DNA of 64,000 bases from Thermoanaerobaculia bacterium (GTDB taxonomy: Bacteria; Acidobacteriota; Thermoanaerobaculia; Gp7-AA8): the NCBI GenBank assembly GCA_036261885.1, contig DATAJY010000017.1:226581-290580 (forward strand), read 5' to 3'. Positions 9,036 through 44,895 of this stretch are shown one piece after another. A program made the position numbers and the translations under genes. The first letter of the stretch is position 1, and each line of letters starts with the position of its first letter. Below the pieces are notes generated by a model. It was not told where the DNA came from and made no database searches. It saw only the letters and a program-made list of their open reading frames with translations.

Positions 9036-9041
9036 AAGGCG

Positions 9042-9942: not shown

Positions 9943-9960
9943 GTGAGGGGCACAACACAA

Positions 9961-11145: not shown

Positions 11146-11202
11146 CGGATCTCCGAGGCGATGAGGGTAGTCGAATTCGGCAAGTGCGGCAATTGGTTCG
11201 CA

Positions 11203-11320
11203 GGAGTCGGTTGTCGGTTGTCGGGAGTCGGGGGGCCACCACCCAACCACGTTCCGATCAGCGAAACGGTGGGATGGGTGGTGGTCTCCCGACAACCGAC
11301 TCCCGACAACCGACTCCCGC
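11203..11320. repeat. Palindromic intergenic element with heptamer-repeat arms (copy 1)
   Basis: (GAGTCGG/TTGTCGG)n...CCACCACCC..CCACGTTCCGA...GGGTGGTGG...(CCGACAA/CCGACTC)n; second copy at 46555-46665. Confidence 0.8.
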
Positions 11321-11359
11321 TTTTGCCGCTATCATCGCGCGCCATCTGGAGGGTCACGC

Positions 11360-23322: not shown

Positions 23323-23334
23323 GACGAGGCCTCG

Positions 23335-25167: not shown

Positions 25168-25188
25168 CGTGCCGGCAGAGGAGGCCTC

Positions 25189-26925
25189 ATGAGGAAAGCC
25201 GGGCTTTTATGCATCGTCCTGCTGGCGCATGCGGGGGCGTTCGGACAGATCGTTCCGAATCCGCCACCGGAGAAGAACCCGCACGCGTGGGCGGATGCAG
25301 ACAGGAAGTATCCATCGGCGAAGGTCTGTGGCCAGTGCCATCCCTCGCAATATCAGCAGTGGAGCGTGTCGTCGCACGCGTACGCGAACCTCTCGCCGAT
25401 GTTCAATAAATTCGAGCAGACCATCAATGACCTGTCGCAGGGCACAGTGGGCCATTTCTGCGTCCGCTGCCACGCCAGCGTCGGCACGGCATTGGGGGAG
25501 CTCCGGAACATCGCCTGGTGGGATCGCAGCGCCGCGTCGCGGGAAGGCATTACGTGCGTGAGCTGCCACCGCGTCGGCGAGGCGTATGGGAAAGTCAATG
25601 CCGCGCGCCGCATTACACCGGGCGACATTCACGAGCCGGTATTCGGCCCGCTCGATAACAGCGGCGGCGTCAAGGCGATCAGCAACGCCGCCGATTTCAA
25701 AATTCTCGTCAGTCCGGATCAACCCGATCAGCCCGGCTATCTGCGCATTCACCAGACCGTCGTGCAGTCGGATCTGATCCGCAAATCGGAATTCTGCGTC
25801 GCCTGCCACCAGGTGCAGGTGCATCCGGGCATCAAGCTCGAAACGGTCTGGGAAGAATACCGGGCCTCTCCCGCGGCGAAAGAAGGGATCACCTGCCAGC
25901 AGTGCCACATGAGCACGAATCCCGGCACGCCGAGCGGGTACGGCGAGGGGCCGATTGCGTTCGTCAATGGCAACGTCGTCAATTCCAAACGCCCGATGAC
26001 CGATCACACATTCGTCGGTCCGGGCTATCCGATCAGCCATCCCGGCCTCTTTCCGTTCCGGCTCGAAGAGTCGCCGTTCACGCCGCAGCAATGGCTGACC
26101 TTCAACTATCGCGAGGAATGGGGCGACGAGGCGTTCGAAAGCACCTCGCCGCCGGCGGACAAGTTCCCACCCGAATGGCAGAACGTCGCCGATCGCCGGA
26201 AGGCGTGGGTGATCGTGAAGGAGAATCTCGGCCGCTGGTATGAGCGACGCGAAGGGCGCAGGAAAATCCTGAGCAATGCCTCGCACCTCGACGGCCCGTT
26301 CTTCAAGAACAAGCCGGCGGCGGGGAAGGCGCTCACGTTCGAATACCGGATCCGCAATCTCAACAAGGGCCACAACCTCCCATCCGGATCTCTCGGCGCG
26401 CAGCCGGAGCTGTGGCTCAACGTCGCGCTGCTCGATCCGAGCGGAGCGATCGTCTGGGAATCGGGGTATGTCGACAGTGTCGGCGACGTTGCCGATCTGC
26501 AGTCGGACGACGTTCGTCATGGACGCGTTCCGCATGACGACCAGCTCGTGAGCATGCAGGCGAAATTCATCACGACCAACGTCAAGGGGACCGATCGCGA
26601 GATGTACCTGCCGATCAACCTCGACGTCGACCAGCGGCCGTTCATTCGACCCGGTGGAACGCCGACCTCTCTCGTCAATCACCCGCCGCTGGCGCGCATG
26701 GAAAAGCGCAGCATCCCGCCATTGGGAACCCGCGTCGCGCAATACAAAGTGCCGGCCGCAAAACTGCAGCAGCGCGGAACCTACAAGCTCGCGGTGCGAT
26801 TACGCGGCCGCACGGAGCCGATCTATTTCATGAATTTCGTCAAGGCCACGAAGGACATGATCCGCGCCGAAAACGAATGGGCCGATGACATCCATCCGTA
26901 TGCCGTCGAATTCGAAGTTCATTGA
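25189..26925 (+). CDS. Periplasmic multiheme (5 CxxCH) cytochrome c
   Basis: Signal peptide; CGQCH, CVRCH, CVSCH, CVACH, CQQCH; C-terminal GHNLPSG Ig-like region. Confidence 0.88.
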   Translation: MRKAGLLCIVLLAHAGAFGQIVPNPPPEKNPHAWADADRKYPSAKVCGQCHPSQYQQWSVSSHAYANLSPMFNKFEQTINDLSQGTVGHFCVRCHASVGTALGELRNIAWWDRSAASREGITCVSCHRVGEAYGKVNAARRITPGDIHEPVFGPLDNSGGVKAISNAADFKILVSPDQPDQPGYLRIHQTVVQSDLIRKSEFCVACHQVQVHPGIKLETVWEEYRASPAAKEGITCQQCHMSTNPGTPSGYGEGPIAFVNGNVVNSKRPMTDHTFVGPGYPISHPGLFPFRLEESPFTPQQWLTFNYREEWGDEAFESTSPPADKFPPEWQNVADRRKAWVIVKENLGRWYERREGRRKILSNASHLDGPFFKNKPAAGKALTFEYRIRNLNKGHNLPSGSLGAQPELWLNVALLDPSGAIVWESGYVDSVGDVADLQSDDVRHGRVPHDDQLVSMQAKFITTNVKGTDREMYLPINLDVDQRPFIRPGGTPTSLVNHPPLARMEKRSIPPLGTRVAQYKVPAAKLQQRGTYKLAVRLRGRTEPIYFMNFVKATKDMIRAENEWADDIHPYAVEFEVH

Positions 26926-26939
26926 GAAAGGAGGCGAAC

Positions 26940-28427
26940 GTGAACGTAATCCAACGCACTGTGACCCTCCTCGTGGCACTGTCAATGACAATGGCCGTGG
27001 CGATGCCGCTGTGGGCCGATGATGAACCGCCGTTGATGTCGCCGGAAGCGAAAATGCTCGGCGAGCTGAAAGACGTCAAGGGATGGTTCGGTCCCGATCC
27101 GCAATACCCGAAAGCGGAGTACGACGGCCAGGCGCAACTCGAAATCTACAGTGGCAAATACCTCAACAAGACGGCGAAGCCGCTCATTGAATGGGGCATG
27201 CGTCTGTACGACCGAGGCGAGTACACGCCGCGGCCGACGTGGCTGGGGCGTGAGAATCCGATCTACTTCCACTTCATGTCGTATGGCGATCTGCGCGTGG
27301 CGGGTGCTCTGTATGACCGCGGCGTGTCGGGTGCGAGCGGTACCGAGCAGTCGGCGATCGCGGTCCGTCTCAATCTCGACATGGATCTCGCGCTCACGTC
27401 GACCGAGCGCATCCACGCTTTCGTTCGTCCGCTCGACAAGAACGGTTCGTTCACGCGCTATCAATTCAAAGGCGCGGTGGACGACGAATTCATCGACGAA
27501 TTCGATTTCGATCTCGACACGCTCTTTTTCGAAGGCGACCTCGGATCGATTCGCGAAGGGCTGACCGGCCGCCGCCAGGGGCCGGATCATCCGATCGCGT
27601 TCGGGCGCGTGCCTCTCCTGACGCAGAACGGCGTCTGGGTCGAGGACGCATTCGACGGCCTCGCCTTCGGCTTCACGGCGCGCAACAGTCCGAAGTACGA
27701 CATCAGCAACATGGATCTGACGTTCTTCGCGGCGTTCGACAAAGTCACCACCGCCGCGGCGCCGGGCGACGATGCGAAAGCGTTCGGCTTCGCCGGTTTC
27801 ATGGATGCGCGCAAGGGCTACATCGAATACGGCTACGGGTTCGTCGCGGCCGACGATGACGATCTCAGCTACCACAACGTCACGGCCGCATTCACGCGCC
27901 GCTATTTCGGCCATCTCGCCAACAGCGTGCGCGTGATCGGCAACTTCGGGCAGCAGGGCGTCGCCGGTAACAAGACCGCGGACGGCGTGCTGCTGCTGGT
28001 CGAGAATTCGTTCTTCCGCCGCGATCCGATCAAGCTCGTGCCGTATGTGAATCTCTTCGCCGGCTTCGACTCGCCGCAGTCGCTGGCCCGCAATGCCGAT
28101 GCCGGCGGCGTCCTGCGCAATACCGGAATCAATTTCGAATCCGACGGCATCACCGCCTATCCGACGCTCGATGCCAGCGCGCACAAGGCGTATGGCGGAG
28201 CGGCCGGACTGGAATGGCTGTTCAAGCTCGACCGGCAGATCGTGGTCGAAGGAGCAGTGGTGCAACGTACCGGCGGCAGCGCGCTCGGCGACGAATACGC
28301 GCTCGGTGTCCGCTATCAACATCCGATCACCAACGCCTGGATCGTCCGCGCCGACGCCATGCACGGATGGCGGCAGGGACAGAAGGACGTCTATGGCGTC
28401 CGTCTGGAACTGCGCCGGAAATTCTGA
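26940..28427 (+). CDS. Putative outer-membrane beta-barrel protein
   Basis: GGAGG SD then GTG; signal peptide; alternating aromatic/Gly strands; ends VRLELRRKF with terminal Phe. Confidence 0.65.
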
Positions 28428-31457: not shown

Positions 31458-32981
31458 ATGGAGCTCCTGCGCATCCTCGAAGAGGCGCGTGCCGCGGGTG
31501 GTGGTGACTGCGCGCTGGCGACGGTGGTCGAGACCAACGGCTCGACCTACCGTCGTGCCGGGGCTCGGCTGATCGTGCGCGGCGATCGCAGAACGTGGGG
31601 TGCGATCAGCGGCGGCTGTCTCGAAGCAGACATCATCGAGCGCGCACTGCGCGCGATCGCAACCGGTGAAGCCGCGCTGGCGCGCTACAAGCCGGCCGCG
31701 GACGATCTCGTGGTCGGTCTCGGCAGCGGCTGTCAGGGCGAAGTGGTGGTCTTCATCGAGCCGCTGCCTCCTTCACTCCTCGAAGCAGGGCCGGACGCGA
31801 ACGACGGAGATGCATGGATCACCATGTATCGCGGAGAGACCCGCGGTACGACCATCGGTCGCACGGTCGATGCGCCGGACGACGCCTTCGTGCAGCCGAT
31901 CGTGGCGCGGCCGGCGCTGCTGTTGTTCGGCGCGTCACCGGCCGCCGAGGATCTGCTGCGGTTTGCCAAAGGCCTCGGATGGTGCGTGCGTGTCGGCGAT
32001 CATCGGCCGTTCGTGGCGAACGACCCGCGTTTCGCCGCCGCCGACTCGATCGAGATCGCGCCGGTCGAAGAACTGCCCGCGCGATTTTCCTATGCATCCT
32101 CGACGGCCGCGGTGGTGATGACGCATCACTACCTGCGCGACCTCGCGCTCCTGCGCCGGCTCGCTCCGATGCGACTCGCGTATCTCGGACTGATCGGTGC
32201 GCGGGAGCGGGCGCGTAAACTCATCGCCGAAGCCGGAATCGACGAATCGGCCGTGCACGCGCCGGCGGGACTCGACCTCGGCGCCGACGCACCGGCCGAG
32301 ATCGCGTTGTCGATCGTGGCGGAGATCCAGTCCGTGTTGAAACGAACCACCGCCACCGCTCTCCGGAATCGCCCCGGCCGCATTCATGACGCGCCGGAAG
32401 AAAACGCGATCGTCATTCTCGCCGCCGGCGGGTCGCGACGACTGGGCCATCCGAAACAGCTCGTCGAGATCGACGGCCAGTCGCTCATCCGTCGCGCGGC
32501 GGAAGCGGCACTGGCGGTGGGGAGCGGCTCGGTACACATCGTCGTCGGCGCCGAGGTTCTTCGCGTGCGCGCGGCGCTGGAGGGCCTGCCGGTCGAGTGG
32601 ATCGTCAACGACGCGTGGGAGGAGGGGATCGCCTCCTCGATTCGCGCGGCCGTTGATGCCATCGAACAGCGCCCGCAACCCGTCGAGACGATGACGCTCA
32701 TGCTGTGCGATCAACCGGGCGTGACCACGGATGTGCTGCGTCGTCTGCTCGATGCCTGGCGCGGCACGCGTTCCGCCGTCATCGCCTCGCGTTATCCCGA
32801 AGGGGCGGGCGTGCCGGCGCTGCTGCATTCCGCGCTCTTTCCGGCGCTGAAAACGCTGCGGGGCGACATCGGGGCACGGCAGCTGATTCGCGAGCTCGAT
32901 CGCGACATCGTCACCATTCCGCTCGACCTTCCGGACGATGTCGATACGGCGGAAGATGTGCGCCGTTTGCGCATTCCGTGA
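31458..32981 (+). CDS. XdhC/CoxI chaperone fused to a MocA-like NTP transferase
   Basis: GSTYRRAGA, ISGGCLE, MTH..RD, PAGLDLG..PAEIALSI, followed by ILAAGGSRRLG.PKQL, LCDQP, GDIGAR, DVDT. Confidence 0.9.
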   Translation: MELLRILEEARAAGGGDCALATVVETNGSTYRRAGARLIVRGDRRTWGAISGGCLEADIIERALRAIATGEAALARYKPAADDLVVGLGSGCQGEVVVFIEPLPPSLLEAGPDANDGDAWITMYRGETRGTTIGRTVDAPDDAFVQPIVARPALLLFGASPAAEDLLRFAKGLGWCVRVGDHRPFVANDPRFAAADSIEIAPVEELPARFSYASSTAAVVMTHHYLRDLALLRRLAPMRLAYLGLIGARERARKLIAEAGIDESAVHAPAGLDLGADAPAEIALSIVAEIQSVLKRTTATALRNRPGRIHDAPEENAIVILAAGGSRRLGHPKQLVEIDGQSLIRRAAEAALAVGSGSVHIVVGAEVLRVRAALEGLPVEWIVNDAWEEGIASSIRAAVDAIEQRPQPVETMTLMLCDQPGVTTDVLRRLLDAWRGTRSAVIASRYPEGAGVPALLHSALFPALKTLRGDIGARQLIRELDRDIVTIPLDLPDDVDTAEDVRRLRIP

Positions 32982-32984
32982 GCC

Positions 32985-33007
32985 GATTGCGCACTCATTG
33001 CGCAATC
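32985..33007. promoter_or_regulatory. Perfect 9-bp inverted repeat at the junction of the redox and lanthipeptide modules
   Basis: GATTGCGCA-CTCAT-TGCGCAATC. Confidence 0.45.
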
Positions 33008-33152
33008 CCGTGTCAGGCGTCACTGAAGCGGCACACTTTAGTTACGTCATGACGGACAAACATACTTGAACCGTTACCGCCGCGTCTCTAATGTAGATGC
33101 ACATACATCAGGAGATCGGGAAACGGTGGACGGACTCACGCGGGAAGCAGTG

Positions 33153-34505
33153 ATGGCCGGCGCTTCGGCGGCGGTACATGCGGAAGCGGAAGAACCGGCT
33201 GGTTGTACGCGCGGCCGACTCGTGTACTGGCTCGGCTGGCAACTGCCGCCGCGCGGTGCCTGCGAGCGGCTCGAAGCGAACGGCTTCCGCTGGCGCGTGG
33301 CCACCAATGCCGCGGATGTCTCGCGCATCGCCGCGCAGTCGGTGCTCTGTTTCGCTCCCCACGCGTCGAGCGCACTGGTGAAACGAACGCTGGACGCGCT
33401 GGCGGGCCGTGCCTGCGCGGTGATCGTGCACGGCGCGCGCGAGCAACTCGCGGCGTTCGCGGAGCTGCTGGACGGCGATCGACTCTTCTATCTCGCGGCG
33501 GGTGTGCTCGAAGAGCGCGACCTCGCGGCGATCGTCGAGGCGGCGGCGCGGCAATTCGAGGAACGGCGCGAGCTCGATGATGCCGCGCATGAGATCACGG
33601 CTGGCGTGCTGCGCCGCATCGCGCTGGCGCAGAGCGTCGTCGAGCTCTCCACCGCCGTGAAGGCGGCGATCGTGCGAACCGTGAGCGCGGAGCGCGGTCG
33701 ATGTCTGCTCTTCGATCGGGAACGGCAGGTGCTCTGGCCGGCGTCGCGTGGAGACGATGACGGCGAGAGCATCGCCGCGGGGCTGAGCAGTTTCGCGCTG
33801 CGCACCGGCGAGGCAGTGCTGGCTGGCTGTGCGGTGGCCGATCCCCGGTTCGATCGCGAGCTCGATCATCCCGAGGGTCGCGACAGCGATCGGCTTCTGG
33901 CGGTGCCGGTGCGCGCGCGCAAAGGCGACGGAGTGGCGGTGCTGATCGCTTCACGTCCGAAAGAGGAGCGCGCTTTCGACGCGCGCGATGTGGCTGCGCT
34001 CGAAACGCTGGCCGCGCACGTGGCGCCCTACATCGTCGCGTGGCTGCCGGCGCCCGATGTGCCGACGGACTCGCCGTTTCGTACGCAGGCGTTGCGCGAG
34101 CTCGCATCGCCGTCGGTCGCCGGCGCGGAACCGCTGCGACTCGATCCGGCGTGGACCAGGCGGGTGACGCTCCTCGGAGTGGTGACGCTGCTGGTGGCCA
34201 TCGTCGCCGCGATCTTCGTACGCGTGCCGGAGTACGCAGCGGCAGACGCGATGGTGCGCAACGGCACACTGACCGCGACCTTTGCCGCTCCGCACGCGAA
34301 CGAGATCGAGCGCGGCATGACGCTGCGCTACGGCAAGGAATTGATGACCGTCGAACGCGTCGATGCGATCGGGTCGCGCGTCATCGTCATCGCGCGCGTG
34401 CCTTCGCTTGTCGATGAATCGCATGGTCGCGCCGAGGTGCGCGTGGGGAGCGAGCGGCTGCTCTTCGTGATTTTCCCGAAACTCAAAGGAGCCACGCGTG
34501 TCTGA
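33153..34505 (+). CDS. GAF-domain protein fused to a TM helix and a truncated HlyD/secretion-adaptor-like region
   Basis: GAF motifs (GL..FALRTGE, DPRFD, LLAVPV, AFD.RDV..LE.LA), then PFRTQAL...PLRL.PAW, a TM helix, and GRAEVRVGSERLL..IFP. Start could be as far up as 33066. Confidence 0.7.
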   Translation: MAGASAAVHAEAEEPAGCTRGRLVYWLGWQLPPRGACERLEANGFRWRVATNAADVSRIAAQSVLCFAPHASSALVKRTLDALAGRACAVIVHGAREQLAAFAELLDGDRLFYLAAGVLEERDLAAIVEAAARQFEERRELDDAAHEITAGVLRRIALAQSVVELSTAVKAAIVRTVSAERGRCLLFDRERQVLWPASRGDDDGESIAAGLSSFALRTGEAVLAGCAVADPRFDRELDHPEGRDSDRLLAVPVRARKGDGVAVLIASRPKEERAFDARDVAALETLAAHVAPYIVAWLPAPDVPTDSPFRTQALRELASPSVAGAEPLRLDPAWTRRVTLLGVVTLLVAIVAAIFVRVPEYAAADAMVRNGTLTATFAAPHANEIERGMTLRYGKELMTVERVDAIGSRVIVIARVPSLVDESHGRAEVRVGSERLLFVIFPKLKGATRV

Positions 34506-36741
34506 GCGGGTGCGATACATCGCGCAGACCGCCGCCGCCGATTGCGGCGCGGCCTGTCTGGCGATGACGCTCGGCGTGCATGGCCGCGACGTGACGCTCG
34601 AAGACGTTCGTCGCGTGACCGGCCTCTCGCGGCACGGTCTCGACGCGCAGATCCTCGTCGATGCCGCCGCACATTTCCGGCTGCGCGGGCGCGGCGTGCA
34701 ACTGCGCACGCCGCAGGAGCTGGCGTATCTCGAGCGCGGCAGCATTCTGCATTGGGAGTTCCGCCACTTCGTCGTGCTCGATCGCTTCGAAAAGAGCGGC
34801 GCGTGGATCGTCGATCCTGCAGCGGGACGGCGCTTCGTCACACTCGGCGAGCTCGATCGCGCGCTCACGGGCGTGGCCATCAGCTTCGAGCCGGCCGGCG
34901 ATTTCGAGAGCGGCGGACTGCAGCGCGAATCGTTGCTGCGCCGCTATCTGCAACGCGTGCTCCGTCACGACGGCGCGCTCGTGCGCATCGTGCTCGCATC
35001 GATTCTGCTGCAGCTCTTCGCGCTGGCCGTGCCGCTCGTGACCGGCGTGCTGATCGATCGCGTGATTCCGCACGCCGATCGATCGCTGTTCACGATTCTC
35101 GGCATCGGCGCGTTCGCGCTGGTCACGTTCTCCTTCTTCGCCGCGCTCATTCGCGGACACATCCTGCTCGCGCTGCGCACGCGCCTCGACTCGCAGCTCA
35201 CGCACGACTTTCTCGAACATCTCGTGCAGCTGCCGTTCTCGTTTTTCCAGAACCGCTCGGCTGGCGATCTCCTGATGCGACTCGGCAGCAACGCCACGAT
35301 TCGCGAGATCCTCACCTCGGCCGTCCTTTCCGGCGCGCTCGACGGCCTGATGGTGTTGTCGTATCTCGCGCTGCTGCTCTTCGCCGACTGGCGCGTCGGG
35401 TTGCTGGTCTCGCTGCTTGCCGTGGTGCGCGTGATCATTCTCGTCGGCGCCCTGCAACGCCGGCGTCGGCTCACGTCCGAAGCGCTGCAGGCGCAGGCCG
35501 CATCGCAGAGCTTCGAGGTACAGCTGCTGGCCGGAATCGAGGCGCTGAAAGCGTGCGGCGCGGAACGTCGCGCCGTCGATTCGTGGTCTCAACTCTTCGT
35601 GCGCGAGCTGAACGTCTCTCTTGCGCGCGGCCGCCTCGACGCGCTCGTCAATTCATTGCTGGATGGACTGGCGCTGGCCTCGCCGATCGCCGTGCTGCTT
35701 TACGGCGGCTCGCGGGTGATGAGCGGCGAGCTGACGCTCGGCATGATGCTCGCGCTCGCGTCGCTGGCGGCCGGATTCCTCGCACCGCTCTCGACGCTCG
35801 TCTCCAACGCATCGCAGTTCCAGCTGCTCGGCAGCTATCTCGAGCGGCTCGACGATGTGCTCTCGACGCCCGCGGAGCCGCAGCGTCGCGAGCTCGCGCC
35901 GCCGAAATCATTCGAAGGACGCATCGCGCTCGACGGCGTCACGTTCGGCTACAGCCCGCTCGTGCCGCCGGCGATCGCGCGCGCGTCGTTCGAGGTCGAC
36001 GCGGGACGGCTGATCGCCATCGTCGGACCGTCGGGCTCGGGGAAGTCGACGCTGGCCGGATTGATCGCCGGCCTCCTGCACGCCGACTCGGGACGCGTGC
36101 TCTACGACGGCCGTCCGCTCGACGAATATCCGCGCGAATGGCTGCGCACGCGCATCGCCTACGTGCCCCAGCGCTCGTACCTGTTCGGGAGCTCGATTCG
36201 CGCGAACATCGCTCTGCAGGATCCGGAGCTGCCGCTCGAACGGATCATCGAAGCGGCGAAGCTGGCCGAGATTCACGACGATATCGCGCGCATGCCGCTC
36301 GGCTACGAGACCGTGCTCGCCGATGGAGGGACGTCGCTTTCGGGCGGCCAGCGGCAGCGCATCGCTCTGGCCCGCGCGCTGGTCGGTCAGCCGCGCGTGC
36401 TCATTCTCGACGAAGCCACGAGCGCGCTCGATGCCATCACCGAAGAGAAGATCCAGCGGAACCTCCTGCGCATGCACGTGACGCGCATCGTTGCCGCACA
36501 TCGACTGAGCACGATCCGCGATGCCGACCGCATCGTCGTGCTCGAAGAAGGAACGATCACCGATTCAGGCACTCACGGCGAGTTGATCGCGCGTGAGGGT
36601 CTGTACCCCCGGCTCGTCGCCGCGCAACTCGAGAGCGCAGACGAGCCGGACTCCCTTCCACCCGCGGTCCGCTCCGCCTCGGTACCGGTCGAAGCGCGAA
36701 CGGCCCGCAGAACTTCGATGATGAAAGGAATTCAGTCATGA
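34498..36741 (+). CDS. lanT: Peptidase-containing ABC transporter (LanT/PCAT)
   Basis: C39 motifs Q...DCGAACLAM, HW..HFVV, DP; GPSGSGKST; LSGGQRQR; ILDEATSALD. Confidence 0.93.
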   Translation: MSERVRYIAQTAAADCGAACLAMTLGVHGRDVTLEDVRRVTGLSRHGLDAQILVDAAAHFRLRGRGVQLRTPQELAYLERGSILHWEFRHFVVLDRFEKSGAWIVDPAAGRRFVTLGELDRALTGVAISFEPAGDFESGGLQRESLLRRYLQRVLRHDGALVRIVLASILLQLFALAVPLVTGVLIDRVIPHADRSLFTILGIGAFALVTFSFFAALIRGHILLALRTRLDSQLTHDFLEHLVQLPFSFFQNRSAGDLLMRLGSNATIREILTSAVLSGALDGLMVLSYLALLLFADWRVGLLVSLLAVVRVIILVGALQRRRRLTSEALQAQAASQSFEVQLLAGIEALKACGAERRAVDSWSQLFVRELNVSLARGRLDALVNSLLDGLALASPIAVLLYGGSRVMSGELTLGMMLALASLAAGFLAPLSTLVSNASQFQLLGSYLERLDDVLSTPAEPQRRELAPPKSFEGRIALDGVTFGYSPLVPPAIARASFEVDAGRLIAIVGPSGSGKSTLAGLIAGLLHADSGRVLYDGRPLDEYPREWLRTRIAYVPQRSYLFGSSIRANIALQDPELPLERIIEAAKLAEIHDDIARMPLGYETVLADGGTSLSGGQRQRIALARALVGQPRVLILDEATSALDAITEEKIQRNLLRMHVTRIVAAHRLSTIRDADRIVVLEEGTITDSGTHGELIAREGLYPRLVAAQLESADEPDSLPPAVRSASVPVEARTARRTSMMKGIQS

Positions 36742-36926
36742 AGAAGCAGATCACCCGCAAGCTCGAACTCTCGAAGGAAACGCTGCGCAATCTCTCCGAA
36801 CGCGATCTGAAGGGCGCGGTCGGTGGCATCTCCGCGATCTGTCAGCCGACGGGCGTCTCGGACTGCTACCCGTGTCCGACCGAAAGCTGTTCGGACGGCA
36901 GCTGCAGCTCGTGGCGCTGCTGCTGA
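36738..36926 (+). CDS. lanA: Class I lanthipeptide precursor
   Basis: SD AAGGA; leader KLELSKETLRNL...VGG; Cys/Ser/Thr-rich core; sits between lanT and lanC. Confidence 0.92.
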   Translation: MKKQITRKLELSKETLRNLSERDLKGAVGGISAICQPTGVSDCYPCPTESCSDGSCSSWRCC

Positions 36927-36988
36927 TGCGTTTCGCATCAGCGTGGCCGGCGGTGGCCTCCTTCAGGAATTGAGGTCCTGAAGGAGGC
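36922..36988 (+). terminator. Two stem-loops downstream of lanA
   Basis: GCTGATGCG-TTT-CGCATCAGC and GCCTCCTTCAGGA-N7-TCCTGAAGGAGGC; no U-tract. Confidence 0.55.
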
Positions 36989-37097
36989 GTGACGTCCGGT
37001 CGGCACGACCAAGGGTTCGCAACCTTTTCGCAAACGCGGCCGTCGGTGTGCGAGTGTGCACCTCGCATACCGGCTGCCGCAACTGGAGGATCTCCGC

Positions 37098-38357
37098 ATG
37101 TGGCAGTCCGTGACGGACGCCGAGCTCGCGGCTGAGTGCTGGTCCGCGATCGGCGAGATCGAATCGTGTCTCGTCGCCCATCTCGAATCGAATGAGTCGC
37201 GCGATCCGTTGCTCGCCAGCGGCGACTCCGGTCTGGCGCTCTTCTTCGCCTATCTCTCCGCGGCGCGGCCCGATTCACCGGCCGGGGACCGCGCGCTCGA
37301 GGCGTTGTCGCGCAGTCTCGACGGCCTCGCCGCCATGCAGCTGCTGCCGGCGCTGCTGATCGGCTACAGCGGCATCGGCTGGGTCGTCGAACATCTCACC
37401 CGCGACTTCTTCGAAGGCGATGACGATCTCGCCACGCCGATCGACGATGCGCTCGAAACGCTGCTGCACGACGTCAACGATGCGCCGCCGTACGAGCTGG
37501 TCGGAGGTCTGGTCGGCATCGGCACGTATCTGATCGAACGCCTGCCGCATCCGCGCGCCGCGAGAACACTCACACGCATCCTCGACCTGCTCGAGATGCG
37601 CGCCGAACATTCGCGCGACGGCATCACCTGGTTCACTCCCGCCGAATGGCTCGCGAACTGGCAGCGCGAGCAGATGCCGCACGGCTGCTACAACCTCGGC
37701 GTCGCGCACGGCGTCCCCGGCATCATCGGATTTCTCGCCGCTGCAAAACAGGAGGGATTCGACGACGCGCGGATCGAAACACTCGCCGCGGGTGCGGTGC
37801 GCTGGTTGCGCGCGCAACGCATCGAGGCCGATCAGTCGTCGCTGTACGGCGCCTGGCTCGTTCCAGGGAAGCCGCTCGAGACCACGCGCACCGCCTGGTG
37901 CTACGGAGACATCGGCGTCGCGGCCGTACTGCTGCGCGCCGCGCGCGCATTCGATCGAAAGGATTGGGAAGACGAAGCGCTGTCGGTCGCGCGCGCCGCG
38001 GCGACGCGACCCGCCGAGCGGACGCTGGCCATCGATCCCGGCCTCTGCCACGGCGCGGTCGGCAACGCCCATCTCTTCAATCGTTTCTATCAGGCCACGC
38101 GCGAGCCGCTGATGAAGGAGGCGGCTCTGGAGTGGTATCGCCGCGCGCTGGCGATGCGCCGGCCGGGCGAAGGTCTGGCCGGCCTGCTGACGTGGATCAA
38201 TCCTGTCGGCCGCGAGGGATTCTGGAAAGGGGAGTACGGCTTTCTCAGCGGCATCAGCGGATTCGCGCTGGCGATGCTCGCGGCGGTGACGGACGTCGAG
38301 CCGAAATGGGATCGCGTGATGCTCGTCGCCGTTCCGCCGAAGGAGCTCGCGGCTTGA
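37098..38357 (+). CDS. lanC: Lanthionine synthetase (cyclase) LanC
   Basis: GVAHGVPG, AWCYGD, GLCHG zinc-ligand motifs; GGAGG SD. Confidence 0.93.
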   Translation: MWQSVTDAELAAECWSAIGEIESCLVAHLESNESRDPLLASGDSGLALFFAYLSAARPDSPAGDRALEALSRSLDGLAAMQLLPALLIGYSGIGWVVEHLTRDFFEGDDDLATPIDDALETLLHDVNDAPPYELVGGLVGIGTYLIERLPHPRAARTLTRILDLLEMRAEHSRDGITWFTPAEWLANWQREQMPHGCYNLGVAHGVPGIIGFLAAAKQEGFDDARIETLAAGAVRWLRAQRIEADQSSLYGAWLVPGKPLETTRTAWCYGDIGVAAVLLRAARAFDRKDWEDEALSVARAAATRPAERTLAIDPGLCHGAVGNAHLFNRFYQATREPLMKEAALEWYRRALAMRRPGEGLAGLLTWINPVGREGFWKGEYGFLSGISGFALAMLAAVTDVEPKWDRVMLVAVPPKELAA

Positions 38358-41300
38358 GCCTCGAACGCGAGTACGCCGCCTCCGAGCTGATCGTGCTGCG
38401 CACGCCGCTGCTGCCGTTCGATGCCGTCGAAGCGTGGAGCAGCGGCAACCCCGATCGCGCGCAGTTGCGCGAGCGCCTCGTGCAGATCGTCACCCGTCCC
38501 GATGTGCGGGAAGCGTTGTTCGTCGCATCCCCCGATCTCGTGGCCAGCATCGACAACTGGCTGCACGATCCGCTCTCGAAAAAAGGACAGCGGACCGAGC
38601 TCGGGCTCGTGCGCTATTTCCTGCGGATGGCCACACGCCCGACGCCGTTCGGACTCTTCTCCGGCTGCACCGCCGGCAGCAGCGGCGGCACGACACGCCT
38701 CGCGCTCGCGTCGCGCGACGACTACCGGCGCCACACGCGGCTCGACATGGATTACCTCTTCGCGCTCTGCGAAAGCCTCACGCGCAGTCACGACCTGCGC
38801 GCCGAGATCCGCTTTCGCCCGAACGCGAGTCTCTACGAAACCGCGGGACGCCTGCGCTACGCCGAAGCGCGCGTGAACGGACGGCATCGCACCTATCACC
38901 TCGTGGCGGTCGATACGTTTGACGCGCTGCAGCTCGCGCTCGATCGCGCCGCGAACGGTGCGACACTCGACGAGCTGGCGCTCGCACTCGTCGAAAGCGA
39001 TGCCGAAGGGGAGATCACGTACGACGACGCGGCTGGGTTCGTGCACGATCTCGTCGACAACCAGCTGCTGCTGCCGGAACTGAGCCTGCCGGTCACCGGC
39101 GAAGAGAGCACGCACGGACTGGTGCGCCAACTGGCGGCGACGCGTTCGATGCGCGGTGCGGCAGCGCTGCTCGCACGCACCGACTCCGCACTCGACGCGC
39201 TCGACGCGCGTGGCGTCGGCTGCGAAACAAACGCGTATCTCGACATCGCCCGCGAGCTCGAACCGCTCGGCGTGCCGGTCGAGCTCTCGCGGCTCTTTCA
39301 GCTCGATCTCTTCAAGCCGGCGGTCGACGTCGGTCTCAGCGATGCCGTGATTCAGGAGATTCTCCGCGGCGTCGAATGGATGCACCGTCCCGTCGCGCAA
39401 CGCCGCTTCGATCCGATCCTCGAAGAATTTCGCCGCTCGTTCCGCGATCGTTATGGCGAGGGAAACGACGTGCCGCTGCTGGCCGTGCTCGACGAAGAGA
39501 CCGGCATCGGCTTCGATCGCTCGGGCATGGCCGGTGCGGACGCGTCGCCGCTGCTGGCCGGTCTCCCGTTCAGCGGTAAGGCGACGCCGTCGATCTCGTG
39601 GATGCCCTCCGATGCGACGCTCATCCGACTGCTGTCGGATGCCGTCGCCGGCGGCCGCATGGAGATCGAGCTGACGGACGACGACTGGAAGTATCTCGAA
39701 AATCGCGAGCGCCCTCCGATGCCCGACGCGTTTCATGCGGTGGTGACGCTCGCGGCGCCGTCGATCGACGCGATCGAGCGCGGCGACTATCGGATCCTGC
39801 TGCACAGCACCACCGGCCCCTCGGGCGCGCGGATGTTCGGCCGCTTCTGTCACGCGGACGAACGGATCCGCGCGGGCGTGAAAGCGCACCTGGCCGCGGA
39901 GGAGGCGCTCGCCCCCGAGGCGATCTTTGCGGAGCTCGTGCATCTCCCGGCGGGGCGTATGGGAAACATCCTCGCGCGTCCCGTTCTCCGGGAATGGGAG
40001 ATCTCGTTCCTCGGCAAATCGGGCGCGCCGGAAGAACGCCAGCTCGCCGTGAGCGATCTCGTCGTGACGGTCATCGGCGATCGCATCCGCCTTCGCTCGC
40101 TGACGCACGATCGCGAAGTCATCCCCCGCCTCACGACCGCCCACAACACCACGTTCGAGAGTCTCGGCGTCTACCGCTTCCTCGCCGCGATGCAGAACGC
40201 CCTCGGCATCGAATGGAACTGGGGACCGCTCGAGGCCGCACCGTTTCTGCCGCGCGTCAGTTGCGGCCGCGTCGTCTTCTCGCGCGCGCGATGGCGGATG
40301 CGCGAACGCGACATCAAGCCGCTCGCGGCGGTCTCCGGTGACGCGCGCTTCGCGCTCGCGCGCGAATGGCGCGCCCGGCATCGCATGCCGCGCTTCGTCG
40401 TGCTCGTCGACGGAGACAATGAGCTGTTGCTCGATTTCGAAAATCCGCTCAACGTCGATGCGGTGATGGAGCTCTTCAAAACCCGCGAGGAGGCGGTGCT
40501 GCACGAAGTCTTTCCCGCGCCCGATGAGCTCTGCGCCACCGGTGCGGAAGGACGCTTCGTGCACGAGCTGATCGTGCCGTTCGTCCGGAAGACAGCGGTC
40601 CCCGCGAAACCGTTCGTCACGAAGAGCGTGCCGCTGCCACCGCGTCCGCGAATCTTCGCTCCCGGCTCCGAATGGCTCTTCGCGAAACTCTACGTCGGCA
40701 GCGGCAGCGCGGATCTCGTGTTGCGCGACGAGGTCGCGCCGCTCGCACACGACGCGCTCGCATCGGGCGCCGCACGCGCCTGGTTCTTCATCCGTTTCGG
40801 CGATCCCGCCTGGCACCTTCGCGTGCGCTTTCGCGGAGAGCGGGATGCGCTGCGCGACGCCGTGCTGCCGAAACTCGAAGCGCTGTTCGAACGGCTGCAG
40901 GCCAGCGGCACCGCCTGGAAGTTTCAGCTCGACACCTACGAGCGTGAGATCGAGCGCTACGGCGGCCCGGCAGGAATCGAGCTGTGCGAGGAACTCTTCT
41001 TCTTCGACTCGGAAGCGGTGGTGTCGTTGCTCGAAACGTTCACGAGCGACGCCGGCGCCGAGGTCCGCTGGCGGACGATTCTTCTCGGAATGGATCGCCT
41101 CCTCGAAGATTTCGGCTACGACCTTCCGGCGAAGATCGAGCTCGCCGAACGCGCGCGCGACGGCTTTGCCCGCAACTACCGCTACGACCCGCTGCGCACG
41201 AGGATCGCCGACCGCCTGCGCAGCGATCGCGCCGCGCTGCTCCGCCTCCTCGCCGAACCCCCGCCCCCCGCGCTGCGCCGCCGCTCCGAATCGAACGCCC

Positions 41301-41515
41301 CGCTCATTCAGGAGCTCCGCGCCCGCGAATCCCGAGGCCACCTGCAAACCCCCATCGCCTCGATCGTCCCCAGCCTCATCCACATGTTCGTCAACCGCGC
41401 CACCCGCTCCGCCGGCCCCGAACACGAGCTCGTCCTCTACGACTACCTCGTGCAGCTCTACCGCTCACAAGTGGCCAGGGAAAAGAAAGGAAGGGAGGTG
41501 GGAGTTGCGGTGTGA
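38354..41515 (+). CDS. lanB: Lantibiotic dehydratase LanB (glutamylation and elimination domains)
   Basis: LRTPLLP, RYFLRMATRPTPFGLF, GRF, FLPRV, DNEL, EWLFAKLY, WFFIRF.DP..HLRVR, YEREIERYGG, HMFVNR; TTG start overlaps the lanC stop. Confidence 0.93.
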   Translation: MSLEREYAASELIVLRTPLLPFDAVEAWSSGNPDRAQLRERLVQIVTRPDVREALFVASPDLVASIDNWLHDPLSKKGQRTELGLVRYFLRMATRPTPFGLFSGCTAGSSGGTTRLALASRDDYRRHTRLDMDYLFALCESLTRSHDLRAEIRFRPNASLYETAGRLRYAEARVNGRHRTYHLVAVDTFDALQLALDRAANGATLDELALALVESDAEGEITYDDAAGFVHDLVDNQLLLPELSLPVTGEESTHGLVRQLAATRSMRGAAALLARTDSALDALDARGVGCETNAYLDIARELEPLGVPVELSRLFQLDLFKPAVDVGLSDAVIQEILRGVEWMHRPVAQRRFDPILEEFRRSFRDRYGEGNDVPLLAVLDEETGIGFDRSGMAGADASPLLAGLPFSGKATPSISWMPSDATLIRLLSDAVAGGRMEIELTDDDWKYLENRERPPMPDAFHAVVTLAAPSIDAIERGDYRILLHSTTGPSGARMFGRFCHADERIRAGVKAHLAAEEALAPEAIFAELVHLPAGRMGNILARPVLREWEISFLGKSGAPEERQLAVSDLVVTVIGDRIRLRSLTHDREVIPRLTTAHNTTFESLGVYRFLAAMQNALGIEWNWGPLEAAPFLPRVSCGRVVFSRARWRMRERDIKPLAAVSGDARFALAREWRARHRMPRFVVLVDGDNELLLDFENPLNVDAVMELFKTREEAVLHEVFPAPDELCATGAEGRFVHELIVPFVRKTAVPAKPFVTKSVPLPPRPRIFAPGSEWLFAKLYVGSGSADLVLRDEVAPLAHDALASGAARAWFFIRFGDPAWHLRVRFRGERDALRDAVLPKLEALFERLQASGTAWKFQLDTYEREIERYGGPAGIELCEELFFFDSEAVVSLLETFTSDAGAEVRWRTILLGMDRLLEDFGYDLPAKIELAERARDGFARNYRYDPLRTRIADRLRSDRAALLRLLAEPPPPALRRRSESNAPLIQELRARESRGHLQTPIASIVPSLIHMFVNRATRSAGPEHELVLYDYLVQLYRSQVAREKKGREVGVAV

Positions 41516-41533
41516 AGGGGGTGGGGTTGTGAT

Positions 41534-41610
41534 TGGTCGGGCAGGGGGGATTTGAACCCCCGACCACCTGAACCCCATTCAGGTACGCTACCAGGCTGCG
41601 CTACTGCCCG
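41534..41610 (-). tRNA. tRNA-Pro(GGG)
   Basis: CGGGCAGTAGCGCAGCCTGGTAGCG..CCTGA AT GGG GT TCAGG..GGTTCAAATCC..CCA. Confidence 0.95.
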
Positions 41611-41675
41611 ACTCGAGGCCGCGCGGGATCGTACCACGCGCGGGGTTGCTAACGGTTTGAGGCGGTCCGTATTCC

Positions 41676-43541
41676 TCAGCCGAGGTTGGGGGCCCAGAGG
41701 ATGAGGTACTTGGTCACTTCGATGTTGCGGCTCGTCGGCGTGATGGAGATCTCTTCGATCGAGCGCGCTTTCGACTGCAGGTCTTCGCGCAGCGACTGCA
41801 GCTCGCGGTCCCAGGCGCGCTGGATCTGGGCGATGTTTTCGAGGTAGTCCACTTCGCGCACGGAGGTGCCGGGATCGGACGCCACCGAGGCGGGACGGCC
41901 GCTCGTGATGTTGTAGAGCGCCTGGCCCCAGGCGACGTTCACCTCGGGGGCATCGGAGCGGGAGTGCTCCTGGTTCTTGTCGATCTCGCGCTGTTCGCGC
42001 TCCGACTTTTCGCGGAGCTGATCGATGCGGCGGCGGAACGTCGACTCCAGCCGCTCCTGCTGCTCTTCGACGCGGCGGTTCGCCTCTTCGAGACAGCGCT
42101 CGATGAACGCCTCGCGCGTTTCCGCCGGTTCGGAGTAGAGACCGAATGCCGCGTTGTGGAAGATCTGCAGGCGCTCGTTCTGCTCGAGGTACTGCTTGAA
42201 TCCTTCCTGCGACTGCGCCGCGTTCTGCATCAGAGCTTCGGGCGTGATGTCGATCTGCATGCGCCGATCGGGATCCGGCACCGCGCGCAGCTCGAGCTTC
42301 TCCGCATCGACGAGCGACGCCTGATGCCACAGCACGCGTCCGTCGGCCGCCGACATCGGAGCGATGTACGAGCGCGTCGTCGAATGATGCGTGCCGCTGC
42401 GGCCTTCGGTGTGCGTGACGATCCCTTCGGCGAGCACGAACGGACGGTAATTGCCGGTTCCACCCGAAACATAGAGCTGCTCGAGGACATCATCGCCGCG
42501 GCGTGCACGCGGCACGCGGACGATCGGCGTCGCGTGCGCTTCACCGTCGTGTTCGACGGTCATCCCGTGTGCGACCGGCACGGCGTCGAGCACCCGTCCC
42601 GGCACGGTCGACAGCGCGCGTGTGATCGCCTCGCGCCGATCGGGCGGGAAGAGGAAGACGATGCAACCGCCGCCGCCTGCGCCGCAGACTTTGCCGGCCC
42701 ATGCGCCGGCGCCCTTCGCCGCGTCGATGGCCGCGTCGATCTCGGGAGTCGAAATGCCGTCGATGAGCGCCTTGCGCGCGTCCCACTCTTTGCCGAGTGC
42801 CGCGCCCGCCGCTTCGAAGTTTCCGGAGTCGAGCGCGCGCTCCATTTCGATCGAGATCTCGGCGATCGAGGCGAGTCCGCGATCGACCTTCTTCTTCTTC
42901 TCGACCTGGCGCTTGTAGAGCTCCCAGTTGTTCGTGCCGGAGAAATGCGCGACGCCGGTGTAATGCAGCAGCATGTGCGACGCGAGGTCGTGCACGGAAA
43001 TCTGCAGCGGATGACGGGCCGGCTTTCCGGGATGGAGATGCAGCGAGCTAAGGCCGCCGAAGACCGGCGGGTAGTAATCCTGAATGCCGGCGGGGACGCC
43101 GAGGAGACGGGTTTCGAGATCGCGCACGAGGTGGATCAGCTCTTCGCCTTCGATCGGATTCTTCGCCAGCTCCGAGAGCGCGCGCACGAGCGTGATCGCC
43201 AGAGCGGACGAACCGCCGAGGCCCGAGCCGCGCGGTGCGTCGGTACGGGTGGTGATGCGGATGCCGGTCAGTTTGAAGTGCTCGAGCGCGCGATGCAGCA
43301 GCGCGGCCTTCGGATCGTTCGACATCTCCTGCAGCGACTCGTAGCGCTGCCGGTATTGCTGATCGGTGAGATGGATCTCGATGCCACCGGTGCCGGTCTC
43401 GCAGACTTCCGATTCAGCGAAGAACGAGATCGCGACGTTGACCGTGCGCGAGCCGGGGTGGAAGAGATACAGCGGCCAGAGGTCGAGAGTACCACCAGCG
43501 AGATCGGCGCGGACCGGCGCCCGGACGGTGACCTTGTTCAT
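41676..43541 (-). CDS. GHMP sugar kinase (HddA-like) fused to a C-terminal coiled-coil domain
   Basis: APVRADLAGGTLD, PRGSGLGGSS, GIQDY, GKVCGAGGGG, plus about 290 extra residues. Confidence 0.8.
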   Translation of the reverse strand: MNKVTVRAPVRADLAGGTLDLWPLYLFHPGSRTVNVAISFFAESEVCETGTGGIEIHLTDQQYRQRYESLQEMSNDPKAALLHRALEHFKLTGIRITTRTDAPRGSGLGGSSALAITLVRALSELAKNPIEGEELIHLVRDLETRLLGVPAGIQDYYPPVFGGLSSLHLHPGKPARHPLQISVHDLASHMLLHYTGVAHFSGTNNWELYKRQVEKKKKVDRGLASIAEISIEMERALDSGNFEAAGAALGKEWDARKALIDGISTPEIDAAIDAAKGAGAWAGKVCGAGGGGCIVFLFPPDRREAITRALSTVPGRVLDAVPVAHGMTVEHDGEAHATPIVRVPRARRGDDVLEQLYVSGGTGNYRPFVLAEGIVTHTEGRSGTHHSTTRSYIAPMSAADGRVLWHQASLVDAEKLELRAVPDPDRRMQIDITPEALMQNAAQSQEGFKQYLEQNERLQIFHNAAFGLYSEPAETREAFIERCLEEANRRVEEQQERLESTFRRRIDQLREKSEREQREIDKNQEHSRSDAPEVNVAWGQALYNITSGRPASVASDPGTSVREVDYLENIAQIQRAWDRELQSLREDLQSKARSIEEISITPTSRNIEVTKYLILWAPNLG

Positions 43542-43560
43542 ATGGGTAGCGCGGATTCTG

Positions 43561-44895
43561 CTAGAAGAGTGCCCGCTGTTGCATCTTTTGCTTTTGTGAC
43601 GCGACGCCCGTGGCGGGGGTCGCGAGACGGGGCGAAAGATGCGCGACGCTCGCACGGAAACGCGCCAGAGACGCGCCGCGCAGCGGATCGGGAGTGATGG
43701 ATTTCAGTTTCAACGGATCGAGCCACTTCCCGTTTTCCGACACTCGGTAATCGAGGTGCGGACCGGTGGCGAGGCCGGTCGAGCCGACGTAGCCGATGAT
43801 CTCGCCCTGCTGCACGCGCGTTCCCTTCTTCAGGTTTTTGGCGAAGCGCGAGAGGTGCAGGTAGCAGGTGTCGTAGCGCGACGAGTGGCGAACGCGGATG
43901 AAGTTTCCTTCGCTCGGGCTGAAGCGTGCTTCGATCACCGTGCCGTCGGCGGTCGACATCACCGGCGTTCCGGTCGGCGCGCCGTAATCGACGCCGTAAT
44001 GCGGGCGGAAGTACTTCAGCACGGGGTGGAAACGCTTGCGCGTGAACCCGGAGGTGACGCGCGAGAACTTCAGTGGCGCTTTGAGGAACTGCTTGCGCAG
44101 CGGAGAGCCGGAAGCGCCGTAGTAGCCGGCGGTGCCGTCGGCGTTTTCGTGGCGGAACGCCTCGTAGGTCGTACCGCGATGCGTGAAGCGTGCGGCGAGG
44201 ATCGGACCGTAGCCGGCGAAGTCGCTGCCGGAGAACTGCTTGGCGACGACGAGGCTGAACGCGTCGCCTTTGCGCAATTCAAAGAAGTCGATGTCCCACT
44301 GGAAGACGTCGACGATCTCCTGCACGAGCGCGGGGTTCTCGCCGATGTTGCGAACGGCTTCGTAGAGTGAGGAATCGATCGTCGCGGAGACGACCTGCTG
44401 CGCGGTGTGGATCTCGGCCTGCTTCGACGTCACGTCGAAGCCGCCGGCGGTGCGCACCGCGTTCACCTCGCCCCAGCCGGTGACTTTCATCTGCACGGCG
44501 TCGATCGTGCCGGCGTTGTCGTGATGGAAGCGAATGAGGTTGCCGGGACGGAGCTTGCGAACGTCGATCGTCTTCGAGAGCTGCGTGGTGAGAACATTCG
44601 CGTCGCCGCGGGAAAGACCGCCCGCCTGCAGGACTTTATCGAGCGTGTCGTTCTTCTCGACGGAAAGCACCAGCGAGTGTTCGGGAAGCTCGGCGCGATA
44701 CGGTTCGGCGAGTGCGTCGTAGCGGAGCTCGGGAGGGGTGATGGAGGCGGCCTGCGAGGTGGTGCCGAACTCCGGTTGCACGCGAACGGCGGCAACGAAG
44801 AGTGGAATCGCGACCGGCAGAGCCAGGGCCGCGTACACTCGCGAGCGCCTGGCCACCCAGCCCAGTCGCTCACCAAGAGCGCGAAGTGTCTTCAT
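43561..44895 (-). CDS. M23 peptidoglycan DD-endopeptidase (MepM-like)
   Basis: RFHPV..HYGVDYGAP.GTPV, YLHLS, TGPHLDY. Confidence 0.9.
   Translation of the reverse strand: MKTLRALGERLGWVARRSRVYAALALPVAIPLFVAAVRVQPEFGTTSQAASITPPELRYDALAEPYRAELPEHSLVLSVEKNDTLDKVLQAGGLSRGDANVLTTQLSKTIDVRKLRPGNLIRFHHDNAGTIDAVQMKVTGWGEVNAVRTAGGFDVTSKQAEIHTAQQVVSATIDSSLYEAVRNIGENPALVQEIVDVFQWDIDFFELRKGDAFSLVVAKQFSGSDFAGYGPILAARFTHRGTTYEAFRHENADGTAGYYGASGSPLRKQFLKAPLKFSRVTSGFTRKRFHPVLKYFRPHYGVDYGAPTGTPVMSTADGTVIEARFSPSEGNFIRVRHSSRYDTCYLHLSRFAKNLKKGTRVQQGEIIGYVGSTGLATGPHLDYRVSENGKWLDPLKLKSITPDPLRGASLARFRASVAHLSPRLATPATGVASQKQKMQQRALF

Follow-up and report, generated by a model that had tools for sequence, protein, structure and literature searches.

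A 64,000-nucleotide stretch of contig DATAJY010000017.1 from a Thermoanaerobaculia bacterium (Acidobacteriota; assembly GCA_036261885.1), hereafter referred to as the window, carries at positions 33153-41515 of its forward strand five genes that encode, in this order, an exporter accessory protein, the peptidase-containing transporter LanT, the precursor LanA, the cyclase LanC and the dehydratase LanB. Our results indicate that this locus is very probably a working operon whose product is a class I lanthipeptide of the Gram-negative kind, with a leader ending in Gly-Gly and the maturation pathway proposed below; the role of the accessory protein is considered apart. The cluster is a member of a subgroup already described, since the leader and C39 protease pattern reported by Walker et al. 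2020 (excerpted text of PMC7268733) and an NCBIfam leader model both exist. New within this subgroup are the family of the core peptide and an exporter accessory in which a receiver-like and a GAF domain (the receiver-GAF module) are combined with a stripped periplasmic part.

Gene content and organization of the operon

A previous reading of this DNA, made from the sequence alone, had listed the five genes with mostly overlapping stop and start codons, and both the genes, on the forward strand, and their coordinates were confirmed by Pfam and NCBIfam matches and by inspection of the sequence (Table 1). The accessory and LanT genes overlap by 8 nt, LanT and LanA share ATGA, and LanC and LanB share TTGA, the 171-nt gap between lanA and lanC being the sole non-overlapping junction. 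An alternative start of the accessory gene is possible at GTG 33126. The G+C content is about 64% throughout the window and slightly higher (66-68%) in the operon.

The assignment to class I, with a LanB and a LanC, a Gly-Gly leader and a C39 exporter (NF038153, PF03412), was likewise upheld. LanB is a stand-alone enzyme with both the glutamylation and the elimination domain (Lant_dehydr_N, PF04738, 7e-161, model positions 2-647 of 649; Lant_dehydr_C, PF14028, 4e-63, 1-255 of 255), its closest solved structure is MibB (5ehk, 2.6e-63), with NisB matching as well, and the residues aligned to NisB R786, E823, R826 and H961 are present. LanC also stands alone (LANC_like, PF05147, 1.5e-43; chain matches to 8byk and NisC), and its alignment to NisC and 8byk reveals a catalytic His and the three zinc-binding residues (two Cys and one His), with AHG keeping its His, WCYG its Cys and CHG its Cys-His. 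We take these residues to have the roles known for their counterparts in NisB and NisC. LanT comprises a C39 peptidase domain (Peptidase_C39, PF03412, 5.7e-25) followed by ABC_membrane and ABC_tran, and matches the PCAT1, ComA and HlyB chains over its full length; Q..DCG retains its Gln and Cys, HFVV retains its His, and Q10, C16 and H90 are invariant in 12 orthologues. The catalytic motifs compared in this way are, in sum, intact, as they had looked in the sequence-only reading. The best NCBIfam match of LanT is TIGR03796, with 631 bits, under the cut-off of 853.

The precursor lies adjacent to these genes and is present as a single copy in the 6.06-Mb genome. Its leader (residues 1-30) bears the box L9-x-L11-x-K13-x5-L19, ends in G29-G30, and matches the NCBIfam model NF038153 ('lant_leader_L1a, class I lanthipeptide') with 29.2 bits against a cut-off of 22; the core (residues 31-62, 32 aa) contains 7 Cys and 9 Ser/Thr and terminates in CC. 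The box, the Gly-Gly end and a C39 protease with catalytic Cys and His are the traits of the subgroup in the excerpted text of Walker et al. 2020. Leu residues are found at positions -15, -12 and -7 before Gly-Gly, and Ala at -4, a hydrophobic/Ala spacing that fits the recognition pattern of C39 exporters given in the excerpted text of PMC10885120. The lipid II-binding motifs SxxxCTP(G/S)C and TxTxEC, as quoted in PMC7268733 (excerpted text), are absent from the core.

Table 1. Features of the lanthipeptide operon and the evidence for each.
Feature	Coordinates	Strand	Evidence
Exporter accessory protein, 450 aa	33153..34505	+	Pfam GAF_2, AlphaFold model, Foldseek, VIA-align, alignment with long forms
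LanT, peptidase-containing ABC transporter (C39, membrane domain, ATPase), 747 aa	34498..36741	+	Pfam, NCBIfam, structure-chain matches
LanA precursor, 62 aa	36738..36926	+	Translation, NF038153, homologues
Structured lanA-lanC spacer, putative row of hairpins	36927..37097	+	Folding compared with shuffles
LanC lanthipeptide cyclase, 419 aa	37098..38357	+	Pfam LANC_like, NisC and 8byk matches
LanB glutamyl-tRNA-dependent dehydratase, 1053 aa; its TTG start overlaps the stop of lanC	38354..41515	+	Pfam Lant_dehydr_N and Lant_dehydr_C, MibB and NisB matches

Genes for leader removal, immunity and regulation were sought with Pfam in 16, and then 31, open reading frames (ORFs) picked across the 64-kb window, the second set being chosen by codon-position GC. 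In agreement with the sequence-only reading, no subtilisin-type protease (LanP), LanFEG-type transporter, LanI or two-component system was recognised among them; we describe these genes as not recognised rather than absent, because several ORFs match no family.

Conservation of the precursor and the cassette

A search of 5.8 billion proteins returned 69 candidate relatives of LanA, 67 of them at E <= 0.01 and all derived from metagenomes or metagenome-assembled genomes (MAGs), whose only informative names were 'class I lanthipeptide [Thermoanaerobaculia bacterium]' and 'natural product precursor', the others being labelled 'hypothetical protein'. When LanA was aligned with 38 of the 67 homologues (39 precursors), the leader proved almost invariant, while C51 of the core was invariant and C35, C46, C61 and C62 nearly so. 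The core family is found only in uncultured Acidobacteriota, and no characterised member was found in it; searches with LanA sequence strings, which covered main texts and not figures, found no relevant paper. The product therefore looks undescribed, as had been proposed, its relatives being named only generically.

The distribution of the cassette was assessed in 401 genomes of the class, one per species, including that of the window and the unpublished genome G175. The precursor profile matched 36 of the 401 at E <= 0.001; leaving out the window genome, matches were obtained in 7 of 24 genomes of the same genus and 17 of 96 of the same family. From these, 13 related loci were fetched. The order accessory-LanT-LanA-LanC-LanB was found in all 11 loci with enough contig, and the two remaining ones, on cut contigs, contain the genes from LanT to LanB; one locus carries six tandem precursors. 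Identities to the window proteins were 64-75% for LanT, 53-61% for LanB, 46-57% for LanC and 36-48% for the accessory protein, and conservation of the cassette extends over four or more genera of one family and into a second family. Conversely, the genes flanking the operon are not common to the relatives (the molybdopterin enzyme was seen in 2 of the 13 loci, whereas GHMP kinase, M23 peptidase and XdhC/MobA were seen in none), so the five genes form a self-contained cassette.

The window genome holds a second class I pair (locus L058, contig C2, at about 669-675 kb), composed of divergent lanC (7458-8696, reverse strand) and lanB (9068-12388) genes whose products are 41% and 49% identical, respectively, to those of the window. 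The interval contains a small candidate precursor, which has a related leader box and no Gly-Gly, and no exporter or accessory gene was found near the pair. LanB relatives were also located at five loci of the species-genome collection, of which the four long enough (L006-L009) contain LanB with no LanC, LanT, LanA or accessory gene within 10 kb. These represent other types of cluster and were not considered further; in three of them (L006, L007 and L008, from two other Acidobacteriota MAGs and one Kofleriaceae MAG) the LanB homologues are 44-51% identical, and may belong to other dehydrated-peptide pathways.

Structure of the exporter accessory protein

The AlphaFold model of the accessory protein (mean predicted local distance difference test score, pLDDT, 78) is composed of a receiver-like alpha/beta domain (approximately residues 20-145), a GAF domain (approximately 148-299), a juxtamembrane FR..AL helix, a membrane helix (332-355) and a beta domain of 80 residues. 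Both fold and profile identify the GAF domain: Pfam GAF_2 (PF13185) scores 42.3 bits against a cut-off of 28.6, Foldseek gives an E-value of 8.5e-10, and VIA-align superimposes 149 residues on 4mcw (Z 18.6, root-mean-square deviation, rmsd, 2.5). Residues 20-145 align with receiver domains over 114-127 residues (Z 12-13.4, rmsd 2.3-3.4).

The periplasmic part differs from that of a canonical membrane fusion protein, in which the membrane helix precedes a lipoyl domain, an alpha-helical hairpin and a beta-barrel. The accessory protein matched neither an HlyD nor a lipoyl family in Pfam (E <= 0.01), in NCBIfam with the whole protein (E <= 0.01) or in NCBIfam with its last 101 residues (E <= 0.1). 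In an alignment of 19 sequences (A2), 16 of them taken from the 64 homologues described below, the window protein has gaps across about 130 columns in which the long forms carry their lipoyl and hairpin parts, and it keeps the first periplasmic strand and the last barrel strands. Because these flanking strands are homologous, the accessory descends from the HlyD family, lacking its full build, and more precisely from a fusion of GAF and membrane fusion protein, its beta domain being a remnant devoid of the lipoyl and alpha-hairpin parts. The sequence-only reading had named this protein a GAF-adaptor; the GAF domain and the descent from a fusion protein agree with that name, while of the periplasmic adaptor only a remnant is left and, therefore, the protein probably cannot bridge to an outer-membrane channel.

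The 64 homologues of the accessory protein comprise 28 long (590-749 aa), 10 medium (381-459 aa) and 24 short forms (268-346 aa), together with 2 unrelated GAF or fusion proteins. Most long forms have precomputed lipoyl or membrane-fusion-type families, several being named 'membrane fusion protein' at their source, and the one scanned with Pfam contains HlyD_3, Biotin_lipoyl and HlyD_D23. The short forms, some of which may be fragments, end directly after the membrane helix. The window protein is a medium form, a build which is kept down to 45% identity in alignment A2 and, for this reason, is not an assembly fault. A fourth architecture was identified in four genomes of the same family, where the receiver-GAF module constitutes the N-terminal 370-390 residues of a single exporter ORF of 1064-1108 aa, with C39 starting at residue 371 or 392 in the two that were scanned. 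As judged from these sequences, the relatives carry the module on a full fusion protein, without a periplasmic part, or fused to the exporter.

A strong accessory match (E <= 1e-40) was obtained in 32 of the 36 genomes with a precursor match and in 5 of the 365 without one, a cross-tabulation in which relatives are not independent; in 2 of the 4 precursor genomes without accessory match, the contig ends at LanT. A search of 1.84 billion representatives with the receiver-GAF module yielded 215 proteins at E <= 1e-10, 14 of them at E <= 1e-30. The best 80 of the 215 (ranks 1-81 minus one protein of 2051 aa) contained GAF_2 (64), HlyD_3 (36), HlyD_D23 (27), Biotin_lipoyl_2 (18), PilZ (4) and C39 (3), and no kinase, cyclase or DNA-binding domain was present among the 11 families found in them. 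From these families and the fusions, it follows that the receiver-GAF module belongs to peptide exporters, the type of tether being variable. PilZ, in 4 of the 80, hints at control of some exporter accessories by cyclic di-GMP.

Two further observations concern exporters with accessory proteins. A class II cluster in the window genome (L066, contig C12) comprises a LanM (DUF4135 and LANC_like, 3439-6657), an ORF of 88 codons (6697-6963) with a Gly-Gly leader and a Cys/Thr-rich tail, and a second C39 exporter (7226-9361, reverse strand) preceded by a coupled accessory gene (9358-10326, reverse strand). This accessory of 322 aa displays the FR..AL helix, the membrane helix and the hairpin-less remnant seen in the window, has no GAF domain, and is 30% identical over 163 residues (E 2e-12); the shared hairpin-less build thus represents a habit of this organism. 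In another family of the class, two genomes (G397 and G337, loci L064 and L065) present up to 15 scattered leader-type precursor matches per genome and one pair consisting of a long GAF-fusion protein and a C39 exporter, with no LanB or LanC match in a 20-kb stretch; such a pair looks like a shared export module for many precursors.

Spacer hairpins and signs of expression

The lanA-lanC spacer folds into a row of stable hairpins with a minimum free energy of -104 kcal/mol, compared with -75.6 +/- 4.6 for shuffled sequences (z -6.2; none of 200 shuffles reached this value). In all 9 orthologous loci folded, the same spacer contains a hairpin of differing sequence whose G+C-rich stem has at least 12 pairs (z -2.3 to -5.3, mononucleotide shuffles). 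These hairpins likely act as a partial terminator or as a 3' stabiliser of the mRNA behind lanA. Terminator-like sites were uninformative (6 against 5.2 expected), and a sigma-54 promoter was rejected, given that the window contains 66 matches when up to 3 mismatches are allowed, whereas chance alone would give 97, and no match near the operon is convincing.

In a soil metatranscriptome run, belonging to the study from which this genome probably came, a contig of 440 nt identical to positions 36599-37038 spans the end of lanT, lanA and the first hairpins, with a word depth of 80.8 against 5.5-11.6 for the other listed contigs of the run that differ in 0 or 1 letter. Parts of the operon are also covered by contigs of a second study, labelled plant metagenome, which differ in 0 to 6 letters. 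Near-identical DNA is present in runs of two studies. The contigs of run X6 leave several bins of lanT, lanC and lanB uncovered, which proves nothing, and runs with small word shares (X5, X7-X13) were excluded from the habitat reading.

Proposed pathway and role of the accessory protein

In the pathway that we propose, LanA would be made in excess over the enzymes, the hairpins behind its gene probably stopping or stabilising part of the transcript. LanB would bind the LxLxKx5L leader, glutamylate Ser and Thr residues of the core with Glu-tRNA and eliminate glutamate, yielding up to 9 dehydro residues, to which the zinc enzyme LanC would add up to 7 Cys thiols, resulting in a compact polycyclic peptide. 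The C39 domain of LanT would then cut after G29-G30, and its ABC part would move the core over the inner membrane. What the sequences show directly is the gene content, the motifs, the family memberships, the conserved cassette, and the domains and fusion series of the accessory protein. We infer all these chemical steps, the number of rings and the sensor or gate role discussed next; for the steps up to export, the source is the established knowledge of LanB, LanC and C39 exporters.

The accessory protein would be anchored beside LanT, with its receiver-like and GAF domains in the cytoplasm, where their most likely function is the sensing of a small ligand or of a partner protein, by which they would gate cleavage or export, the periplasmic part being too reduced to reach an outer-membrane channel. 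We propose this role of a cytoplasmic sensor or gate on the exporter tentatively, because the cytoplasmic module is retained while the periplasmic part decays, and because it is found fused to the exporter itself. When a complex between the receiver-GAF part (residues 20-330) and the C39 domain (1-150) was predicted, the score was 0.00, which is no evidence either way.

Several observations weigh against the interpretation of the locus as a working operon with a gated exporter. The pathway offers no route for the peptide across the outer membrane, and the LanC residue aligned to the Asp of the NisC YDV motif is Glu. With respect to the accessory protein, the receiver-like domain lacks an Asp after strand 3 (A-P-H comes after residues 64-67, at a place where the family consensus is FGPG) and has no Pfam Response_reg match, for which reasons it reads as a pseudo-receiver and not as a normal phospho-receiver; moreover, Pfam calls no GAF in the exporter-fused forms, their link to the module being provided by tblastn (E 1e-14 to 1e-21) and our own profile (E 1e-47 to 1e-52). 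As for expression, no sigma-70-like site was found in 32700-42000, the sigma-54-like matches close to the operon are no better than 3 mismatches, and the RNA-library contig over lanA is a hint only, as the library may hold DNA and contig depth cannot rank genes.

The loss of periplasmic structure could also mean that the accessory is just a decaying membrane fusion protein and its GAF domain a passenger without a role, LanT working alone or with an adaptor encoded elsewhere. We regard this as unlikely. The periplasmic part is clearly being lost in the lineage, as indicated by the series of long, medium and short forms and by the loss located in alignment A2, and the second exporter of the same genome (L066) has an accessory with a hairpin-less remnant and no GAF. 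However, what is lost is the fusion-protein part, whereas the receiver-GAF module, the FR..AL helix and the membrane helix are kept at 30-57% identity, the module has moved onto the exporter in four genomes, and the medium form is conserved down to 45% identity; a passenger would not survive through four architectures.

A bolder extension of the gate role, which we consider improbable, is that the module constitutes a ligand-operated switch and a widespread, undescribed layer of control on C39 exporters (215 clusters at 50% identity, nearly always attached to a fusion protein or an exporter). In this lineage the bridge to the outer membrane would have been given up, and the lanthipeptide would be freed to the periplasm or kept at the envelope only upon a cellular signal, with a role in the cell's own envelope or in signalling rather than as a free antibiotic.

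Comparably improbable is the suggestion of the sequence-only reading that the peptide is a signal or an anti-eukaryotic (e.g., antifungal) agent instead of an antibacterial one, for which we found no supporting evidence. It would explain why immunity genes were not recognised in the ORF scans of the window, and would suit a core without the two lipid II-binding motifs quoted in PMC7268733 (excerpted text) and the antifungal activity that the consulted part of PMC9680876 attributes to pinensin, a member of the same broad group. However, missing immunity genes do not discriminate between these functions, and nothing in the sequence suggests a signal receptor, with no kinase or regulator in the cassette or the window. 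The outer membrane may, furthermore, itself protect the producer. In the closest characterised group bioactivities are mostly unknown, according to the same portion of PMC9680876.

Finally, a silent or decaying cluster that makes no product is very improbable, for although the sigma-70-like and sigma-54-like scans gave no promoter-like site, and the related peptides had not been isolated from the strains of Thalassomonas and Pedobacter that natively encode them, such lanthipeptides being seemingly cryptic (excerpted text of PMC9680876), the five frames are all open with intact motifs, the cassette is conserved over several genera and a second family, and the operon is represented in runs of two studies, including the RNA-library contig over lanA.

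Comparison with known systems

The closest counterparts of the operon are the class I clusters of Gram-negative bacteria. Walker et al. 2020 describe many Bacteroidetes class I LanAs with the LxLxKx5L box, many of whose leaders end in Gly-Gly, and often a C39 protease in the cluster (PMC7268733, excerpted text), while pinensin, Ped15.1/15.2, the thalassomonasins and the viridisins are given as class I peptides of Gram-negative bacteria in the excerpted text of PMC9680876, with double-glycine leaders for the Ped15, thalassomonasin and viridisin precursors. As far as these excerpts go, the window locus and the Gly-Gly clusters of this kind share a separate LanB and LanC, the LxLxKx5L/Gly-Gly leader, the C39 protease or exporter and the lack of LanP. 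The window locus differs from them in its phylum, with its named relatives in Thermoanaerobaculia/Acidobacteriota, in having one precursor instead of several, in its own core family of the CPTESC...CC type, and in an unsplit LanB, that of pinensin being split according to the same part of PMC9680876. The likeness to this pinensin-like group rather than to the nisin pattern, as advanced by the sequence-only reading, is therefore sustained; its view of LanB and LanC with a Gly-Gly leader and a C39 exporter as a departure from known systems is not, for Walker et al. 2020 (in the excerpted text) and the NCBIfam model already cover this architecture.

With nisin- and epidermin-type operons the locus shares the LanB/LanC chemistry and the presence of a hairpin behind the precursor gene. 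Such a hairpin is typical of nisin-type operons. In contrast, the FNLD-type leader, LanP, LanI/LanFEG, LanRK and the SxxxCTP(G/S)C motif for binding lipid II that distinguish these operons were not recognised in the locus or the 16 and 31 ORFs of the window, and the exporter has a C39 domain.

A resemblance to the NHLP/Nif11-type export cassettes (TIGR03796, a peptidase-bearing exporter; TIGR03794, an HlyD-like protein; TIGR03797) is found in LanT, whose best match belongs to this set, in the long accessory forms, which match TIGR03794 weakly, and in the pairing of an exporter with a fusion protein, as in PMC2887384. All these scores are under the curated cut-offs, and unlike those cassettes the locus has no second ABC subunit and an accessory with receiver-like and GAF domains and without the lipoyl and hairpin parts. 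The available part of PMC4452313 reports proteins with GAF, HlyD and biotin-lipoyl domains in SecA_DEAD-associated, type I secretion-like loci, for which a regulatory or sensory role is only suggested; by description, these resemble our accessory in joining GAF to a membrane fusion protein beside secretion genes, whereas their loci are, as given there, in other phyla, with SecA_DEAD and an M50 peptidase as partners and no genes for peptides made by ribosomes and modified after translation (RiPPs). Literature searches found no receiver-GAF accessory with lanthipeptides or in any RiPP cluster, and the study on Edaphobacter (PMC11354219) deals with class IV only.

Gly-Gly class I lanthipeptides of Gram-negative bacteria are numerous in genomes and few have been characterised. 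The present operon, from soil Acidobacteriota, extends this set by a conserved and compact case with a single precursor, whose five genes could be transferred to a host as they are. Control of peptide export is usually sought only at transcription; since the receiver-GAF module is kept with C39 exporters through four architectures, its post-translational control becomes testable. The stepwise loss of the periplasmic bridge, in turn, raises the question of the destination of the peptide in a bacterium with two membranes.

Neighbouring genes

The remaining genes recognised in the window, none of them RiPP-like, include molybdenum-cofactor genes, cytochromes, SecDF/YajC, Tgt, MnmA, GlmS and similar ones. 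Converging on lanB is a GHMP-kinase ORF (41676-43655, reverse strand), whose best NCBIfam match, heptose 7-phosphate kinase, is far under its cut-off; it has an extra stretch of about 290 residues (41676-42545) without family match, and is not kept beside the cassette in the relatives. At 21085-28427 of the forward strand, upstream of the molybdopterin enzyme genes, lie genes for cytochrome c-like proteins, a GMC oxidoreductase, a family-less protein of 501 aa and a multihaem cytochrome with c554/MtrC-like matches.

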